IMG/VR virus record: IMGVR_UViG_2563366803_000007
Coordinates: 1 to 42,967 of that record
Strand: one strand, 5' to 3'
Length of the DNA stretch: 42,967 nt
Source of the DNA: a virus
Lineage: Duplodnaviria; Heunggongvirae; Uroviricota; Caudoviricetes
In this document: piece by piece, positions 3,633-26,782 of the stretch
How the letters are laid out: the number at the start of each line of letters is the position of its first letter
Numbering within the stretch: the first letter of the stretch is position 1
The notes under the pieces: model-generated
Seen by the model: only the letters and a program-made list of their open reading frames with translations
What the model was told of the DNA's origin: nothing
Databases searched by the model: none
Position numbers and translations under genes: made by a program

Positions 3633-4501
3633 TATGCGTACTCCTCAATGATGACATAGCCGTTAGCGCCCTTCCCTGATGCCCTGGCGATTGAGTCATA
3701 TGATGCGCCAGCACCACCTCCACCAGGGAAAAATCCATCATCACCGGATGAACTAACGTGTGGAAGGCCACCATAACTACTGTGCGATGCGCCACCTACA
3801 CCACCCAGGCTTACACCTGATCCTCCCTGTCCTCCCTGACCAGCCACTGAGAATATTGTCCCAACAGATGGAGCTCCCGGAATTCCGCCAGCAGAATTAC
3901 CAGCAGACTTTCCCCCCTTACCACCGCCAGCAGAGATACCCAACGCGGTAATGGTAGTGTCTCCCCCATCACCGCCATCCCCTGCATTCCCTGCTGCAAC
4001 TGCCGCGCCACCAGCGCCAATAACGATATTCGCCCCATTAATGGTGCTTACGTCATATAATCCCTCAACATATGCACCACCCGCCCCACTAGGTGCACCA
4101 GTCCCTGCGACGTCTGTTCCCTTACCCCCACCGCCTGCACCCCATGCTTTAATTCTGACTTTTTTAGTGCCAGCAGTTTTTACCCATGCTCCGCTAGCGG
4201 TAAAAACCTGAATGCGGAGCAGGCGTCCTTCTGCCTGATTATTAAGTGCGGACTTGAGAATATTTAGTAACGTGGCAATGTTCCCATTATCCAGGACATC
4301 GCTTCCTGTGCTATCCGCCATGAATTGTGCAAGGACGGCAGCAATTGTAGAGGATTGCCGTAGTGCTTTATTTACTTGTGCTGACGAGGCTTTGCCGGAA
4401 AGAAAACCAGATGCCAGTACAGATAGCGCTTCATAATCAGCCTGTGATAATACGTTTGCCCCGCTACCAGTAGCGAAGGGTTTAAAATCGTTAGTCGCCA
4501 T
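3632..4501 (-). CDS. Tail fibre protein with glycine-rich repeat region (289 aa from ATG at 4499..4501)
   Basis: N-terminus MATNDFKPFATGSGANVLSQADYEAL; long Gly-rich GAGGGGKG/GGDGGDGG tracts; TAATG overlap with upstream gene. Confidence 0.55.
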   Translation of the reverse strand: MATNDFKPFATGSGANVLSQADYEALSVLASGFLSGKASSAQVNKALRQSSTIAAVLAQFMADSTGSDVLDNGNIATLLNILKSALNNQAEGRLLRIQVFTASGAWVKTAGTKKVRIKAWGAGGGGKGTDVAGTGAPSGAGGAYVEGLYDVSTINGANIVIGAGGAAVAAGNAGDGGDGGDTTITALGISAGGGKGGKSAGNSAGGIPGAPSVGTIFSVAGQGGQGGSGVSLGGVGGASHSSYGGLPHVSSSGDDGFFPGGGGAGASYDSIARASGKGANGYVIIEEYA

Positions 4502-5274
4502 TAAAATCTCTCTCCCCATGACCCGCGGTCGAAGCCAGCGATATAGTCATTTTCGATATCGAAGCCAAAAAACTGATAACCATCACTGACGGTCTCTATT
4601 TCACGGACACGAACCCCTGCGGCTTTAACCGTCATATAACCGTTCCGAATCGCCCACCATAGCTCGCTGTTAACCTGGTCAATCGGGTTAATGTCATAGC
4701 GCGATGGTACGTAACCTGCCGGTAATGCGATAAAGGGGCCTTTATTGACGGCGCTATCCAGAATTAACCGGTCTATTTCACTTAGAGCTACCGATGGGTC
4801 ACCGAGTATCCAGATAGAAATCGACATATCCTGGTTGTCGACAATAGCCATGCGGATCCCAGACCCGGCAAGGGCGGCATCAAGAATTGAAGGCAGCGAA
4901 TCGTTCTGACCATCCCAGTTGTTTATCGCCACTTTCACCTTCAGCATTAGCCGATATATTTCATCGCTTAGATCGATAAAACCGTCGTTTGGGTCATATG
5001 GTCCCTGCCAGACCCCCTGATCCCAGCCAACCCGTTCGGTGTCCCACGAAAAATAAATCCCGGTTACCGGTGTAGCCACGCGACGGGAACGACCAACCCA
5101 TTCGCCCACAACGTCGAGTTGCACGCCAATGGCGGTATCAATATCAAAATCGGGTATTAGCCGTGACATGGCATCGGAAACATCGCTCAGTGGCCTGGTG
5201 GACAGGTCAACGTGTGCAAAGAACTTTGGTTTACCGGCGTGGTAGTTGGTTATGCGGTCAGTGTATCTGCTCAT
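4501..5274 (-). CDS. Tail/baseplate protein (257 aa)
   Basis: Translationally coupled between baseplate J-like gene and tail fibre. Confidence 0.5.
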   Translation of the reverse strand: MSRYTDRITNYHAGKPKFFAHVDLSTRPLSDVSDAMSRLIPDFDIDTAIGVQLDVVGEWVGRSRRVATPVTGIYFSWDTERVGWDQGVWQGPYDPNDGFIDLSDEIYRLMLKVKVAINNWDGQNDSLPSILDAALAGSGIRMAIVDNQDMSISIWILGDPSVALSEIDRLILDSAVNKGPFIALPAGYVPSRYDINPIDQVNSELWWAIRNGYMTVKAAGVRVREIETVSDGYQFFGFDIENDYIAGFDRGSWGERF

Positions 5275-6821: not shown

Positions 6822-7475
6822 TCATCCTCCGAGTGGTGCTGTACTGCTGCTACCAGGCTCAACGCCACCATGCGTATGCTTATCAACGACTGAGCCATCC
6901 ACCAGCTGCAGGCGGCCGTCAGAAAGAATTTTAAGCCCGTTCAGGTTAAAACCTCCCGGCGCCGTGCCGTTGATAGCTCCACTGGCAGGATTAAGGCTCA
7001 ACTTTGTTTCCCCGTCATCACTGCGCAGCTCTACCGCACTGGTGCTGATACCGCCGATTTTCTTCGCCTGCGACTGCGGGCCGACAATGCAGAAGGCATC
7101 GGATAAATCATGCATGCGCTCGTCTACCGGCTCCTGAATACCCCCACTCTGCCACCAGAAATCAATACAGCGGTCCGCAAAGATAACAAGGCATTCATCA
7201 CCAGCTTTAACAGGAAAAGTCAGCGTGCAACCTCCGCCGCGAGGGAAGATGACAGGAACATCTACCAGTAGCGGGAGGTTTACCGATACCTCGGCGCCGG
7301 ATTCGTCCTGCTCTGCGCCTTTAATGGCTGGCTGAACAACAGCGGTGACGGCGTCCGGATCAAACGACTGAATGATGCCAGGCATGGCTACGCGCATTGC
7401 AGACATGATCGCCTGCGCCAGCTGTGCGTCTGCCTGCTCTTTACTGCCGAGCTGGGAGTTTAGTGCTACGGGCAT
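6822..7475 (-). CDS. Baseplate spike/assembly protein V-like (217 aa from ATG at 7473..7475)
   Basis: Position upstream of W/J-like genes; GGAG RBS before second ATG; first ATG at 7493 directly follows a terminator T-run with no RBS. Confidence 0.5.
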   Translation of the reverse strand: MPVALNSQLGSKEQADAQLAQAIMSAMRVAMPGIIQSFDPDAVTAVVQPAIKGAEQDESGAEVSVNLPLLVDVPVIFPRGGGCTLTFPVKAGDECLVIFADRCIDFWWQSGGIQEPVDERMHDLSDAFCIVGPQSQAKKIGGISTSAVELRSDDGETKLSLNPASGAINGTAPGGFNLNGLKILSDGRLQLVDGSVVDKHTHGGVEPGSSSTAPLGG

Positions 7476-7494
7476 TTGGGTTACTCCGGGCATT

Positions 7495-7514
7495 AAAAAA
7501 CCCGCCGGAGCGGG
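7495..7514 (-). terminator. Rho-independent terminator downstream of the Doc gene
   Basis: Minus-strand hairpin CCCGC-TCCG-GCGGG followed by TTTTTT. Confidence 0.55.
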
Positions 7515-7543
7515 TTGCGATTAGAAGGGATAAACAAGGCCTG

Positions 7544-7951
7544 TCAGTATCCATAAATCGTATCAGCTAAGAGGTCGTTTTTATAATTTGATAGCAGCTT
7601 CAAGGCCAGTGCTGTGCTATCACAATCAGCCTCTCCCGTTGCTGCAAAAACTGTCAATTTTACTAACTCTATGGATGTATTAAGCTCATATCCATTCATA
7701 AGCAAAAACACACTCGCGGCCTGAAACGCGGTCCTCTTATTTGCATCATTAAAAGCATGAGATTTCGCTATAGATACCATATACATCGCAGCAAACTTGA
7801 ATAAGTCTTCACACCCTTCATACATACGCAAATTGTGGACTCTGTTAAGGGCGCCCTCCAACTTCCCTCGATCAGGTTCTCCGCTCTTCGGAAGGGTTGT
7901 TTTCTGGATGGTAATTACCTCTTCGACTGAAAGAAATACAATCTCATCCAT
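7544..7951 (-). CDS. doc: Doc/Fic-family toxin (135 aa)
   Basis: Fic motif HAFNDANKRTA; overall similarity to P1 Doc; start overlaps antitoxin stop. Confidence 0.8.
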   Translation of the reverse strand: MDEIVFLSVEEVITIQKTTLPKSGEPDRGKLEGALNRVHNLRMYEGCEDLFKFAAMYMVSIAKSHAFNDANKRTAFQAASVFLLMNGYELNTSIELVKLTVFAATGEADCDSTALALKLLSNYKNDLLADTIYGY

Positions 7952-8364
7952 TATTTATCTTCCAGTTTTTTAATGATATCTGCATGCCGTGTCTGAGTAT
8001 GTTGCAAAGCCTTGATAAACGATTCAGAAACACCCTGAAGAGCAATTGCCGTATTGGCTACCTTCGTTAAAGCTTGGCGAGCCTCATCAGACCTGAGAAG
8101 GTCATCTAATTGCTTAGTAAGCCGCATAATGCCCTCCCGCGTCTGTGGTGATATATTCGATGTAATCAACTGCGCAAGCTGCGTATCCAGTTTCTTGGAT
8201 GTAGGCTTAATTTCCTTAGCTATCAACTGACAATTGTCAGGCTCTCCACGAAGAATGAGATCAGGCTTACCCCGCTGAGTGACAGTTACACTTTCACCAG
8301 AACGCAGCAGCTCTAGCGTTGCAGATAAATCGGTTCTCATTTGTGTGTAAGTAATAGTTTTCAT
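7951..8364 (-). CDS. Phd/YefM-like antitoxin with long helical C-terminal extension (138 aa from ATG at 8362..8364)
   Basis: N-terminus MKTITYTQMRTDLSATLELLRSGESVTVTQRGKPDLIL is Phd/YefM-like; AGAGGGGG RBS; immediately upstream of Doc. Confidence 0.65.
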   Translation of the reverse strand: MKTITYTQMRTDLSATLELLRSGESVTVTQRGKPDLILRGEPDNCQLIAKEIKPTSKKLDTQLAQLITSNISPQTREGIMRLTKQLDDLLRSDEARQALTKVANTAIALQGVSESFIKALQHTQTRHADIIKKLEDK

Positions 8365-8374
8365 TATGCCCCCT

Positions 8375-8388
8375 CTGTACATGTACAG
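8375..8388. promoter_or_regulatory. Perfect 14-bp palindrome CTGTACATGTACAG overlapping the antitoxin RBS (putative TA operator); -35-like TTGACT about 20 bp upstream
   Basis: Palindrome read directly from the sequence; location typical for TA autoregulation. Confidence 0.4.
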
Positions 8389-8451
8389 ATTAGCGCATAA
8401 TTAGAAGTCAAGAGCAATGAGGCTCTATAGAAAAGTCGGGGGCTGCCGTCT

Positions 8452-8793
8452 CTACTTAACTCTCTGACAGTCGTACGTCCAGAACTCTCTGGGCTCGTCC
8501 ATGTTCTTGCGGATCACTTCGACGTTGAGGATGGCCTTATTGTTGCGCTTAACGTAGTCGAGACCTAGCCAACGCCCTGTTTTGGCGTCTGGGAGCATCC
8601 ATTGCATCATGACGTTATCGAAGTCGTCTTTTTGCTTGAGGAAGGTCATTTTCTGCGTTTCAGGGGCTTGTCCGTTGATATGCATCAACCCATCGCTTTC
8701 GCCCTTTAAGAAAAAAGGTCCGCATTGAGTGGCAGAAAAAGCTCCGCAGGAATAAAACAACCCAAAGACCAAAAATATTCCTAATTTTTTCAT
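8452..8793 (-). CDS. Small secreted hypothetical protein with N-terminal signal peptide (113 aa)
   Basis: N-terminus MKKLGIFLVFGLFYSCGAFSA is signal-peptide-like; ATG overlaps the stop of the upstream baseplate gene. Confidence 0.5.
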   Translation of the reverse strand: MKKLGIFLVFGLFYSCGAFSATQCGPFFLKGESDGLMHINGQAPETQKMTFLKQKDDFDNVMMQWMLPDAKTGRWLGLDYVKRNNKAILNVEVIRKNMDEPREFWTYDCQRVK

Positions 8794-9815
8794 CAGCCAA
8801 CCTTGTTTAAAGTGCTCAGGCTTTGCAGTTCTCTAGCCCCTTTCGCCAGACACAGCAGGTCCATATACCACGCCTGCCCGCGAGTATCGCCAGTATAGTC
8901 AATGCTGCCGACAATGTAATCACCGTCGGTATTGATTGCCGCCAGCTGCGACCCGGGAAGCCCATCGACATAGATGTTACCGTCTGTGGTACTTTCGCCT
9001 AAGATACCTGGTGACTGGCCAACCTGGTCATTACCGAGAGCCTGACGATATACAGAGGCCTGATCCAGCCTGATAAGCCCACCAAGCTTAATATTCGGGT
9101 TTATCAGACAGCGCACATTTACCCCGGCGCCCATCGTCTGCTGAGGCATACCGATCAGGCCCGTATTGGCGTTCAGTACAATCGCTTCCTGTATGTACTT
9201 ATCATCAGGAACAATATGCACCTGGTTGTTTTCGTACCACCAGTTAGCCTTACATTGCCCTGCAAGGCTGTACATCAGGCGTCCAGTGTTCTGATAAATA
9301 GTGCGGCCGCGGGGGAATACAGTTGGACCAAAATCCGGCCTGCTTCCCTCTGTAATGCCATAAGGGCTAAGGGACTGCATACCCAAATCAAACAGGTCAG
9401 CATGCTTCCAGCCTGCCGATACTGTCGTTTTCACGCTGGCGTTGAGATGCCCCTCCCAGCCATCAATACACTGGATGAGCACCCAACTATCGGTGACGTT
9501 ATCTTTTCCGGTAACGGTAAAGCGAATATCACCGTTAAAGATGATCCCCACATTTTTATCAGGATAGTTACCACTGCTGTCTGCTGTGCCGTTATACCCG
9601 GCAATAGCCCTTACACGAGTAAACTCTTTACCCATGATCCGGTTTTGTGTCTCCGGCGACAGATTGTAGATTTTGAAGTTACCCACGAATCCGTTAAAGA
9701 TAGTCGCGGGCATCTTCTGGATATTAAACGTCACCTTAAAATCCGACAGCGAAACCCCATCACCCTTGTCGTCAATAAGCTGCAGCTCAAAGTGCCGCAT
9801 CCAGTTCTGAGACAT
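8793..9815 (-). CDS. Baseplate hub/tail protein (340 aa from ATG at 9813..9815)
   Basis: GGAG RBS before ATG; track ORF begins at an upstream GTG; position between tape measure and baseplate genes. Confidence 0.5.
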   Translation of the reverse strand: MSQNWMRHFELQLIDDKGDGVSLSDFKVTFNIQKMPATIFNGFVGNFKIYNLSPETQNRIMGKEFTRVRAIAGYNGTADSSGNYPDKNVGIIFNGDIRFTVTGKDNVTDSWVLIQCIDGWEGHLNASVKTTVSAGWKHADLFDLGMQSLSPYGITEGSRPDFGPTVFPRGRTIYQNTGRLMYSLAGQCKANWWYENNQVHIVPDDKYIQEAIVLNANTGLIGMPQQTMGAGVNVRCLINPNIKLGGLIRLDQASVYRQALGNDQVGQSPGILGESTTDGNIYVDGLPGSQLAAINTDGDYIVGSIDYTGDTRGQAWYMDLLCLAKGARELQSLSTLNKVG

Positions 9816-9817
9816 AA

Positions 9818-10120
9818 TCACTCCGTTACTGCGTAGAGATGGCTTTTAATGCCGAGGTCGGTTTGGGTTGGATTATCATTTGCCGGGTCGTCGCAATTGA
9901 CATAGAGCGAAAAGCCAAGCCCGAGATAGCGATACTGCGCCAGCAGGTTGGCGCCGGTGATAAGCGGGATCCCCTTTATCAGGTCGGCCCCGGTACTGTC
10001 CATAATATCCAGACACCAGAAAGCAGCACGCCAGGTGACAGCCATTTGCAGGCTTTGACCTGCAACAGATATGGAGAATCGCTGGTTTTCTGGTGATAGA
10101 GGGATTTCTGAAACAGCCAT
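9818..10120 (-). CDS. Tail protein (100 aa)
   Basis: Tightly packed in the tail operon downstream of the tape measure gene. Confidence 0.45.
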   Translation of the reverse strand: MAVSEIPLSPENQRFSISVAGQSLQMAVTWRAAFWCLDIMDSTGADLIKGIPLITGANLLAQYRYLGLGFSLYVNCDDPANDNPTQTDLGIKSHLYAVTE

Positions 10121-10720
10121 TTAACCTCCCGAGATGAAACCGACAAACCGGCTTATTAGCGACTCATCTTTCGGAGTCGGTGTCTTTACTCCTGAATTTT
10201 GCACCGCTGACGTGTTCACTCCCTCTTTCATGTTTTCCTTCGCTGCCACGCTGACTGTCTGCGTCTGGCTGGTGATTATTTCCCTGAGCGTAACTGTCGC
10301 CATCAGTACGTTTTCGCTGGTACGTTCGGTCGTCACATCCAGAGAGCGGATCACCATATTGGTATAAAGACGTTTCCCGGTAGTCACATCAAGCAACTGC
10401 CTTTCCTGCTGCATTTTGAGCAGCTCAGCATAGACTTCCTTAGGCCCCATGTTGTTAAGGGGCGTAGACAGCCCGATGCCTGCTGTATCATAAAAATCCA
10501 GCAAGGAACCACCACCAGCAAAGCCTATCTCCATAACGACTTCTGACGGGCGCCGATATGCATGGTCTGCAATGAACCCTGTTCCTGCGCTTGTAGGCCT
10601 TTCAACTGGATGCTCTGTCACCTCCAGAGCATCGCTATGACGCTCTGAAACCACCACATCGGGTATCATCAGACCAATACGGCGGCTCCGCTGCTGGAAA
10701 AGGGTTGAAAGAATATCCAT
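10121..10720 (-). CDS. Tail protein (199 aa)
   Basis: Start overlaps the tape measure stop; tail operon context. Confidence 0.45.
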   Translation of the reverse strand: MDILSTLFQQRSRRIGLMIPDVVVSERHSDALEVTEHPVERPTSAGTGFIADHAYRRPSEVVMEIGFAGGGSLLDFYDTAGIGLSTPLNNMGPKEVYAELLKMQQERQLLDVTTGKRLYTNMVIRSLDVTTERTSENVLMATVTLREIITSQTQTVSVAAKENMKEGVNTSAVQNSGVKTPTPKDESLISRFVGFISGG

Positions 10721-12720
10721 CAGCTCGGCCCCCTGGTTAGTTGCTGGGTAGCGCGTGCATTAACGTTGCCCTGGCTTTCAGAGACGATTTTCCCCGCCTC
10801 TCTCGGATCGCTGACACCAGAAATGTTGATAACGGTATTCTGGTTCAATGTCGCGCCAGCCCCCGGCATATTGCTCAACACCTTCGGGATATATTGCCTG
10901 GTTTCCTGCGGCATCAGCGCCATGCCGTATTTCTGCACGTTACCGATCCCCCAGTTATACGAGGCCAGAGCTTTACCCAGATCTCCGCCGTTCTTCTGCA
11001 GGAGCATCGATAGATATCGCGCCGCCGCTTCCGCTGACTTGATCGGGTCGAAGACATCATTCCCGCGTAGCCCCATATCCCGAGCGGTGCCAGGCATAAA
11101 CTGGAACATTCCCTGTGCGCCGGCACCGGATACAGCGAACTGATTCCCCCCTGATTCAGTGATAGCGACACTTCGCAGAAGACCAGAAGGAAGGTTATAC
11201 ATAGCCTCCAGCTTACCCATCATCGGGGCCATCCATCCAAGCAACTGAGCGCCAGCTTTTGAAGGTGACGGTCGTTTCACTGATTGTCCGTACTGCGTGG
11301 CATCACCATTCCACCAGTCAACAGCCTTATCCCATAACCCCTGCCCGACAGAGGCGGCACCCTGAATAATCGGGCTATCACTCCACGCTGCGGCTGCGCC
11401 TTTAAGCGAATCCCATGCGCCGGAGAAATCGCCACTAATAACCTTACGCAGAGCGTCCACCAGCGAACCAAGGATTTTGATTGAACTGCGGACGCTTTCG
11501 ATAATCTGGTCAAACAGCCATTTGCCATTAAATTTCGACGTATCGATATTAATGAATTCAAGGAATCGCTTACCCAGATCGACGATGGCAGAGCCAAGGT
11601 CTTTAACCTTCAGATAGATGCCACCAAAGTCCTTACTCAGGCTGGCAAAAGCCTTTTGGGCATATTTGATACCCGGCTCCCATTTCCCCCAGTCTATGAG
11701 CGACTGGCCGCCTTCTTTCCACGTACGATAATCGTCGTAGAGACCTATCAGCGCGGCTCCCAGCATAAAGACACGGCCAATGGGCGACATCGCAAAGGCG
11801 GTATTCAGAAGGCGCCAGGCAACCATCAATGCGCCAAATACCTCAATAACTTGTCTGGTTTCGGTACCGAGTGATTTCCACCAGTTGATAATGTCCCCGG
11901 TGAGCTGTATCAACCGATAAACCACCCGGCCAATGATTTCACCAAACCACAGGACACCTTTGACACCAGCAGTGATAGCCCCTTCAATTTTCGGGAAATT
12001 CTCCATGACCTGACGGCGCAGGCGGTCCAGCGAGCCCGTCAGACCATCGGCCAGACTGGAACCGATTTTGTCCCGCGCCATACCGGCCATTTCGCCGAGG
12101 GAACGGAGTGAGGTCATAAACCTGTTAGACGCAGCAGCAGCCTGTTCAGGATTGAACCCGATGGCCTTTTTCATCGCGTTGTACTGGCCCATGTACTCAC
12201 CAATACCACGGCGCATTGCCATCAGGGTGTTTTCATCCAGACCCAGCATCTGAGCGTACTGGTTAGCTCGGTAATACGGCATGCTGCTAAGACGCTGGCC
12301 GACGCCGGTAAAGATCGTCGCCATATCCCGCATGTTACCGCTGGCATCACGCGTTTGAACCCCCAGCCGGTTCAGAAAACCCTCAGCGCCGGGATTGTTA
12401 CGCATGAACCTGGCAAGATTTTCGAGAGAGCCGCGGGCCCCGTCGACACTGCCGCCAACCTGACTAACCGCATACCCAATCTGCTTAATGCCCTCCACCG
12501 TCGCGCCTGTGCGCTGAGAGGCCCAGTACAGGTCGTCGAGACCGCTGGCAATTTTCGCGGTGAATGCAACGACGGAAAGTGCCGCCGCCTCAACTTTGAC
12601 GCCCAGTTCAATCGCTTTAAGCGTTGTCCCGGCAACGACGGCATCGAATTTTCTGGCGCCAGCCTCATCAACTTTGAACCCAAGCGAGATCAGAAAGTCC
12701 TTGAGCGTTTCAGCGTTCAT
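10720..12720 (-). CDS. Tail tape measure protein with lytic transglycosylase (SLT) domain (666 aa)
   Basis: Predicted membrane/coiled-coil N-terminal part; C-terminal SLT-like block VAITESGGNQFAVSGAGAQGMFQFMPGTARDMGL. Confidence 0.8.
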   Translation of the reverse strand: MNAETLKDFLISLGFKVDEAGARKFDAVVAGTTLKAIELGVKVEAAALSVVAFTAKIASGLDDLYWASQRTGATVEGIKQIGYAVSQVGGSVDGARGSLENLARFMRNNPGAEGFLNRLGVQTRDASGNMRDMATIFTGVGQRLSSMPYYRANQYAQMLGLDENTLMAMRRGIGEYMGQYNAMKKAIGFNPEQAAAASNRFMTSLRSLGEMAGMARDKIGSSLADGLTGSLDRLRRQVMENFPKIEGAITAGVKGVLWFGEIIGRVVYRLIQLTGDIINWWKSLGTETRQVIEVFGALMVAWRLLNTAFAMSPIGRVFMLGAALIGLYDDYRTWKEGGQSLIDWGKWEPGIKYAQKAFASLSKDFGGIYLKVKDLGSAIVDLGKRFLEFINIDTSKFNGKWLFDQIIESVRSSIKILGSLVDALRKVISGDFSGAWDSLKGAAAAWSDSPIIQGAASVGQGLWDKAVDWWNGDATQYGQSVKRPSPSKAGAQLLGWMAPMMGKLEAMYNLPSGLLRSVAITESGGNQFAVSGAGAQGMFQFMPGTARDMGLRGNDVFDPIKSAEAAARYLSMLLQKNGGDLGKALASYNWGIGNVQKYGMALMPQETRQYIPKVLSNMPGAGATLNQNTVINISGVSDPREAGKIVSESQGNVNARATQQLTRGPS

Positions 12721-26626: not shown

Positions 26627-26702
26627 TGGTGCTGGTTAACGGACTTGAACCGCTACCCATTCGCTTACAAGGCGACTGCTCTACCATTGGAGCTAAACCA
26701 GC
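26627..26702 (-). tRNA. tRNA-Thr (anticodon UGU), phage-encoded
   Basis: Manual cloverleaf: 7-bp acceptor stem GCTGGTT/AACCAGC, D stem GCTC/GAGC, anticodon loop CTTGTAA, T loop TTCAAGT, 3' ACCA encoded. Confidence 0.6.
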
Positions 26703-26707
26703 ATATT

Positions 26708-26782
26708 TGGCGGGACAGCGTGGACTCGAACCACGATAAGAAGGTTAACAGCCTTCCGTAATGACCTTTATACGACTGACCC
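26708..26782 (-). tRNA. tRNA-Asn-like (anticodon GUU), possibly degenerate
   Basis: Manual cloverleaf: anticodon stem GAAGG/CCTTC, loop CTGTTAA, T arm CGTGG-TTCGAGT-CCACG, CCA encoded; one mismatch each in acceptor and D stems. Confidence 0.45.

Follow-up and report, generated by a model that had tools for sequence, protein, structure and literature searches.

A predicted exported accessory protein encoded directly after the baseplate hub gene of temperate Enterobacterales myophages

Introduction

Phages place envelope-acting accessory proteins among their tail genes, and the characterized examples of this arrangement are autonomous, prophage-expressed or early. Cor of phages phi80, N15 and T1, Llp of T5, gp15 of HK97 and Ltp of TP-J34 are envelope-targeted exclusion proteins encoded in or next to the tail genes; Cor, Llp and Ltp are lipoproteins, HK97 gp15 is an inner-membrane protein, and all are expressed early or from the prophage. 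T4 Spackle (Sp), a helical protein made from an early gene, acts in the periplasm to inhibit the gp5 tail lysozyme. Here we describe a small gene in such a setting, which we call X (8452..8793, minus strand), in the 42,967-nucleotide viral sequence IMGVR_UViG_2563366803_000007 (hereafter the window). The window is essentially a single temperate lambda-like myophage genome, with its closest overall similarity to Klebsiella prophages. X is annotated as the 113-residue precursor of a predicted exported small beta-barrel, on the evidence of its open reading frame, a match to phrog_3443, its homologues, an AlphaFold2 model and the ratio of nonsynonymous to synonymous substitution rates (dN/dS).

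The original prediction, made from the letters of the window, had read X as a small secreted protein and, on the grounds that exported proteins are unexpected among tail components, as a possible moron acting on the cell envelope. An exported accessory protein encoded among tail genes is, however, no surprise in view of the systems described above. Our analysis of X and its relatives instead points to an exported, non-structural accessory gene that is tied to expression of the tail genes and borders a separate hotspot for variable cargo.

Results

Gene X and its family

The reading frame that the original prediction had announced, without stating its strand, is present on the minus strand. Its ATG (8793-8791) and the TGA stop (8795-8793) of the gene upstream share a single base, an A, so that the junction reads ...GGC TGA TG AAA... 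on that strand. The upstream gene (8793..9821, minus strand), which had been taken for a baseplate gene, is identified as the baseplate hub by matches to PF22759 E217_GP41 (E=1.9e-7) and phrog_196 (E=7e-80), and the predicted overlap of start and stop is borne out.

X is a full member of PHROG 3443, a family of the same size and of unknown function some of whose members are labeled 'putative exported protein' by their sources (E=6.9e-46, residues 7-113 against profile positions 8-114 of 115). A search with the single sequence returned 62 clusters, whereas the family profile matched 546. Among the 120 best profile matches listed, every one that carries a source name belongs to the Enterobacterales, and a few are labeled 'secreted' or 'putative exported protein'. 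The family appears to be compact, because an exhaustive search of cluster representatives yielded only 73 members at the 50% identity level; the long repetitive matches of this search (e.g. P0161) were dismissed as low-complexity artefacts. The mature part of X has a dN/dS of 0.10-0.15, indicative of purifying selection and to be compared with 0.07 for the hub, 0.17 for the spike and 0.29 for the plug, and no diversifying selection was seen across X overall. Together, the roughly 546 clusters, the PHROG match and the dN/dS values show that X is a real gene rather than a chance open reading frame. Our search of the literature found no functional or proteomic study of any X-family member, nor a virion proteome of an X-bearing phage.

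Position and expression of X

Conservation of the locus was assessed in 85 related loci (L001-L085), 5 from annotated phages and 80 from IMG/VR. The order tape measure, Dit, plug, hub, X, variable stretch, spike, gp25 and J is kept in all 85, and X directly follows the hub gene in every one of them, down to 27% identity. Wherever its start could be assigned (79 of 79 loci), X begins between -7 and +4 nucleotides from the last base of the hub stop. Many X alleles are without a Shine-Dalgarno sequence, and one large allele group has no recognizable one at all (e.g. TGCGGCGCAATACACATGAAA). A promoter of its own was not found for X, since promoter-like sites occur in the region at chance frequency and include one 9/12 match, inside the hub gene; no terminator was found directly 3' of X. 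The G+C content at third codon positions (GC3) of X is 0.614, within the 0.53-0.62 of the tail genes, while the downstream phd and doc genes have values of 0.40 and 0.42. By synonymous-site composition, Phd-Doc looks foreign and X looks native to the tail genes.

Because the junction is constant, the Shine-Dalgarno sequence is often missing, no promoter or terminator of its own was found and GC3 is tail-like, X is to all appearances expressed with the tail genes through translational coupling to the hub. GC3, dN/dS and the fixed position after the hub likewise indicate that X is a resident gene rather than a recent acquisition.

These results bear directly on the proposal that X is a moron. 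Of the features that define a moron, X lacks a detectable promoter and terminator of its own and does not deviate in base composition; only patchy presence at the same junction among related phages is found. With two of the three features absent, the sequence evidence does not support the classic reading of an autonomous moron. The original prediction was thus right in part: an envelope-directed, non-structural role is favored by the signal peptide, the cysteine pair, the lipoprotein fusions, the patchy presence and the allele swaps described below, and what falls away is the strict moron, given the coupling to the hub, the tail-like GC3, the fixed position and the promoter and terminator that were not found.

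Three observations concern family members and signal-peptide proteins at other positions. A distant X-family member, P0187 (L095 5001-5330), lies between plug and hub rather than after the hub. Providencia phage PSTCR3 (L088 2469-2942) carries an unrelated signal-peptide protein at the plug-hub junction, the same site as P0187. The Erwinia psidii chromosome (L096/L098 5001-5339) holds an orphan X-family member outside any prophage; flanked by yoaK and a LysR-type regulator, this gene stands alone, with tsx some 2 kb away. A copy 61% identical to it occurs in Erwinia mallotivora, and a single-protein scan of genome contigs placed it in these two Erwinia species only.

X as an exchangeable accessory allele

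Relatives of the hub were found in 137 phage records and relatives of X in 20. The hub gene runs straight into the spike gene, without X, in Providencia phage PSTCR3, Bordetella phage IFTN9 and a Rosemountvirus phage, and according to the literature the two genes are directly joined in Pam3 as well. X is likewise missing from Hafnia phage yong1, with a hub 51% identical to that of the window, and from phage EKP1, with a hub of 74% identity.

The clearest indication of the status of X came from comparison of its alleles with the tails that carry them. In two prophages (L044 and L056) the tape measure, Dit, plug, hub, spike, gp25 and J proteins are 96-100% identical to those of the window, and X is only 66-69% identical. 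The reverse is seen in L012-L016, where hubs of 77% identity accompany X proteins of 90%. At the DNA level, identity to near-isogenic prophages breaks at 8452/8835, the latter about 40 nucleotides before the hub stop, and resumes at 7514-7517; in L001, X is kept and the replacement is confined to 8452-7515. These allele swaps among near-identical tails, together with the DNA break points, suggest that X is an exchangeable accessory allele and that the cargo downstream of it forms a cassette of its own. The diversity of X would on this evidence stem from the swapping of old alleles. Identity of X to the window allele correlates best with that of the adjacent hub (rho 0.62) and less well with that of other genes. 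Where X alleles range from 66 to 98% identity, the first fibre gene stays at 93-99%; this gene was covered by the fetched flanks, and the true receptor-binding genes lay beyond them.

That X is not universally present with the hub/spike module and does not co-diverge with it argues against a structural component of the baseplate. More broadly, the sequence comparisons make it quite probable that X is not a component of the virion.

Export signals, cysteines and predicted fold

Signal peptides in the X family were called by heuristic rules (a positively charged start, a hydrophobic core of 10 or more residues, small residues at -3 and -1) applied to 65 diverse members. X begins with MKK, followed by a 16-residue hydrophobic core (best 10-residue Kyte-Doolittle mean 2.77) and then GAFSA|TQC. 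Its predicted Sec-type signal peptide, MKKLGIFLVFGLFYSCGAFSA, comprises codons 1-21 (8731..8793, minus strand) and is placed by the alignments, the heuristic scan and a low-confidence N-terminal helix in the structural model; AFS|A and C-G-A|F are the cleavage candidates, and cleavage is predicted between residues 18 and 21. The rules are passed by X and by 58 of the 65 members, in agreement with the signal peptide of the original prediction. The sequence of the N-terminal 20-30 residues is not conserved across the family, but a K/R-rich start, a hydrophobic core and small residues are always kept, the small residues directly preceding an invariant 'xCG' motif.

The three cysteines noted in the original prediction are residues 16, 24 and 109. 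Invariance is confined to Cys24 and Cys109, which persist even at about 20% identity; Cys16 is missing from 57 of the 65. In the window allele, L-F-Y-S-C16 fits the permissive PROSITE lipobox pattern, albeit with an atypical Phe at -3 and Tyr at -2, and a lipobox-like cysteine upstream of the invariant one is present in 8 of the 65 members. Lipid anchoring at Cys16 is therefore possible for the window allele, as it is at the corresponding cysteine of some other alleles, to judge from the motif. Two cluster representatives, P0131 and P0153, are longer lipoproteins with lipoboxes VLSGC and LVSC and a C-terminal X domain, and P0131 occupies the same position after the hub as X. The two proteins (P0131 at L092 8001-8879) are 292 and 265 residues long, and the domain of about 190 residues fused to the X domain at their N-termini is uncharacterized and has no Pfam match.

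AlphaFold2, given the 65-sequence alignment, models X as an eight-stranded up-and-down beta-barrel preceded by the N-terminal helix mentioned above, with a predicted local distance difference test score of 87 overall and above 93 for residues 21-113. Cys24 lies in the first strand and Cys109 in the last, the two strands by which the barrel is closed, and from the position of this invariant pair we infer a Cys24-Cys109 disulfide. The best structural neighbors of the model are ligand-binding barrels of the avidin/calycin type, with no close known relative. An integral eight-stranded outer-membrane barrel of the Ail/Lom/OmpX type, marked by long amphipathic strands, a hydrophobic belt and a C-terminal aromatic residue, was considered for X and rejected. 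The signal peptide that is conserved in kind, the invariant cysteine pair and the lipoprotein-fused relatives all fit an extracytoplasmic protein, and we consider it very probable from these sequence features that X is exported.

The cargo slot downstream of X

The stretch from X to the spike gene (7515..8451, minus strand) is a variable cargo slot, as recognized from family matches, DNA-identity break points, GC3 and the length and content of the slot in relatives, among which the gap ranges from 64 to 2914 nucleotides. In the window it holds a toxin-antitoxin (TA) pair, comprising the Phd/YefM antitoxin gene phd (PF02604; open reading frame 7951-8382) and the Doc/Fic toxin gene doc (PF02661, TIGR01550; 7544-7951), both on the minus strand. 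The original prediction had set X just upstream of a TA cassette, and Phd-Doc indeed begins 69-87 nucleotides after it. For phd, the extent of the Pfam match and a GAGGGGG ribosome-binding site favor an ATG at 8364 over the listed start at 8382. A perfect tandem palindrome, TGTACATGTACA, is found at 8376-8387, just upstream of this probable start, and may serve as the operator through which the TA pair regulates itself.

Clustering of slot proteins and reading of representatives identified Doc/Fic-type toxins, an Arc-like protein, a HicAB-like pair, anti-repressor-like and TPR-like proteins, lipoproteins, membrane proteins and other signal-peptide proteins, as well as one weakly HEPN-like protein (PADLOC HEPN_IX, E=0.009). 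Unrelated exported or membrane proteins lie at the hub-spike junction of EKP1, SEN34, Magia and Mulock, which gives this neighborhood an envelope-related character in keeping with a role of X at the envelope. EKP1 (L086), whose hub is 74% identical to the Klebsiella-type hub of the window, is recorded as an Elizabethkingia phage, an odd-looking host assignment. In place of X it has an unannotated small open reading frame with a signal peptide, MKITILCVLMMLTLPALA..., at about 4030-4270, and at 4299-4622 a second signal-peptide protein homologous to the C-terminal part of the membrane-anchored SEN34_21.

At the far end of the slot is a terminator-like hairpin (7499..7516, minus strand; AACCCGC-UCCG-GCGGGUU followed by U6), with a 7-bp stem of which 5 pairs are GC and a UCCG loop, which ends 2 nucleotides before the spike ATG. 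In several relatives the downstream recombination boundary falls at this hairpin, which, in lysogens, may shield the distal tail genes from cargo transcription. With its sharp break points against near-isogenic prophages, the hub/X-to-spike junction is, on the sequence evidence, a cargo hotspot, and the true moron slot of these phages would be the variable stretch between X and the spike.

The surrounding tail operon

All late genes of the window lie on the minus strand, in the order tape measure, Dit, plug, hub, X, Phd, Doc, spike, gp25-like, Baseplate_J and DUF2612. Upstream of the hub are the tape-measure gene, which encodes an SLT domain (10720-12720), a Dit-like protein (10121-10720) and a Pam3_gp18-type plug (9818-10120). 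The spike gene (6822..7493) encodes a gpV-like protein with an Apex motif, identified by PF18352 (E=4e-45), PF18946 and synteny, and bounds the cargo slot as its conserved downstream flank; the gp25-like, Baseplate_J and DUF2612 genes follow 3' of it. Elsewhere in the prophage, two neighboring tRNA genes (26630-26782, minus strand) lie directly 5', on that strand, of the putative lysis genes.

The C-terminus of the tape measure (10720-11320 in the window) was compared between loci, including L002, L004, L010, L028 and L041. In this lineage it is either an SLT transglycosylase domain or an unrelated module (RNNNPGNIRP...STWAP...ARKEG) that has no Pfam match, with the last 45 or so residues common to both types. 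An SLT-like module is present in 39 of 75 X-bearing loci and the different module in the other 36, and either can accompany the same X allele group. Specific inhibition of the tape-measure SLT domain was accordingly rejected as a general role of X, since about half of X-bearing phages carry the other module and X alleles are distributed without regard to module type.

Discussion

The data enabled us to propose a model for X. In this model, X would be exported through Sec, its signal peptide removed at about residues 18-21, and released into the periplasm, with lipid anchoring at Cys16 as an alternative for the window allele. The mature protein of about 11 kDa would fold into an eight-stranded up-and-down barrel with its first and last strands stapled by the putative Cys24-Cys109 disulfide. 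As X would be translated from the late tail transcript, through coupling to the hub, it would be present in the periplasm while tails are being assembled. X would not be a tail building block, but a long-resident accessory gene of the SEN34/Mulock-type tail module of temperate Enterobacterales myophages, forming the upstream edge of the hypervariable hub-spike cargo slot. Its most likely role would be to bind an envelope target or the incoming tail tip and thereby block phage entry or re-adsorption, acting in superinfection exclusion or progeny protection. We judge the model of an exported, non-structural, late coupled periplasmic envelope factor to be evenly poised between right and wrong when taken as a whole. 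The entry-blocking role, which draws on location and precedent, is a tentative proposal that may well prove mistaken.

A bolder version of this model can be formulated, in which X is the founder of a class of hub-co-translated periplasmic factors that are delivered late to the periplasm of the producing cell, where they disarm contractile tails that arrive or re-adsorb, or else alert the lysis machinery to superinfection. The conserved 3' end of X and the spike-proximal hairpin would then be the fixed anchors of an undescribed defence/TA cargo hotspot in SEN34/Mulock-type temperate myophages. We regard this extended version as rather unlikely.

Several points weigh against the proposed model. 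Export is read from heuristic signal-peptide rules, however probable we hold it to be, and the case for the Cys24-Cys109 disulfide consists solely of the invariance of the pair and the predicted barrel topology. No match to X came from Pfam, NCBIfam, PADLOC (none of whose defence-system families matched) or the sequences of the Protein Data Bank, the last queried with X alone and with the family profile. The X allele tracks neither the muralytic module of the tape measure nor the spike nor the first fibre gene, and we saw no sign of a cognate tail partner. Finally, late coupled expression is, to our knowledge, atypical of prophage-expressed superinfection-exclusion proteins.

Other functions for a small periplasmic protein of this kind have to be considered. 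X could be an inhibitor of a cell-wall-degrading enzyme, in the manner of MliC/PliC or T4 Spackle, with the tape-measure transglycosylase, the phage endolysin or a lysozyme of the host or a competitor as its target. The even division of X-bearing loci between two tape-measure modules, to which the X allele group is indifferent, speaks against the first of these targets; structural matches to PliC are no better than those to dozens of unrelated barrels, X matches no Pfam family, and by our own reading the MliC/PliC signature motifs are not visible in the family alignment, all of which leaves such an inhibitor unlikely. Alternatively, its small size, predicted periplasmic location, expression tied to the late genes and purifying selection, as for a gene of the essential cycle, would suit a late regulator of lysis that acts on holin, spanin or endolysin in the way of the T4 RI antiholin. 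However, some 16 kb separate X from the putative lysis cassette (at about 25.1-26.4 kb, assigned from reading-frame sizes and position only), its alleles are swapped independently of the rest of the phage, relatives do without it, and no known lysis regulator is similar to it; we consider this role improbable.

The similarity of the barrel to avidin/calycin-type ligand binders, the stand-alone chromosomal copy in Erwinia psidii and the location of X beside a slot rich in host-acting cargo would instead be in keeping with a lysogenic-conversion or host-benefit factor, one that binds a small ligand, or a molecule of the host, in the periplasm or at the outer membrane. Such a factor should be made in the uninduced lysogen, which is doubtful for a gene coupled to a late structural gene and with no promoter of its own found; moreover, the family is otherwise restricted to one position in the tail module, and we hold this explanation to be no less improbable than a role in lysis. 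It could also be argued that a gene co-translated with the hub at a fixed site in the hub cluster, with one distant member between plug and hub, encodes a tail or ejection component, carried in the hub/spike cavity and using its hydrophobic N-terminus as a membrane-insertion segment. Alleles of 66-69% identity alongside baseplates of 96-100%, functional relatives without X, and the lipoprotein-fused versions and invariant cysteines that point to an extracytoplasmic protein make this very improbable. We retain the late periplasmic envelope factor as our working model.

If X does block entry or protect progeny, this would bear on phage therapy against Klebsiella and Salmonella lysogens, and would add a late-expressed periplasmic mode to phage-phage interference. 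Whatever its function, X is a practical landmark, and the stretch between X and the spike can be mined for defence genes.

Comparison with known systems

X resembles Cor, Llp, gp15 and Ltp in being small, encoded among tail genes, non-structural and variably present, and in being exported or membrane-targeted, which for X is a prediction. It differs from them in being unrelated in sequence and fold and coupled to late expression, and most members of its family look like soluble periplasmic proteins; furthermore, X has no known exclusion phenotype. With T4 Spackle, X shares the characteristics of a small phage protein with a cleavable signal peptide and a periplasmic destination, as predicted here; X is, however, a predicted beta-barrel rather than a helical protein, is late-coupled, and has no association with the tape-measure SLT module. 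Compared with MliC/PliC, X lacks both the Pfam match and the signature motifs, and its structural matches to these inhibitors do not surpass those to avidins or Cap15.

Like the classic morons (lambda lom and bor, HK97 gene 15), X is an extra gene in a late operon that distant relatives do without, whereas the absence of a detected promoter and terminator, the native synonymous-site composition and the constant position within the clade set it apart from them. The neighboring Phd-Doc cassette fits the definition of a moron far better than X does. What X adds to the known systems is a widespread family, of some 550 clusters with no characterized member, that spans Klebsiella, Salmonella, E. coli, Pantoea, Erwinia, Serratia, Yersinia and others, has a different predicted fold, and appears to be hard-wired to the hub gene by translational coupling.
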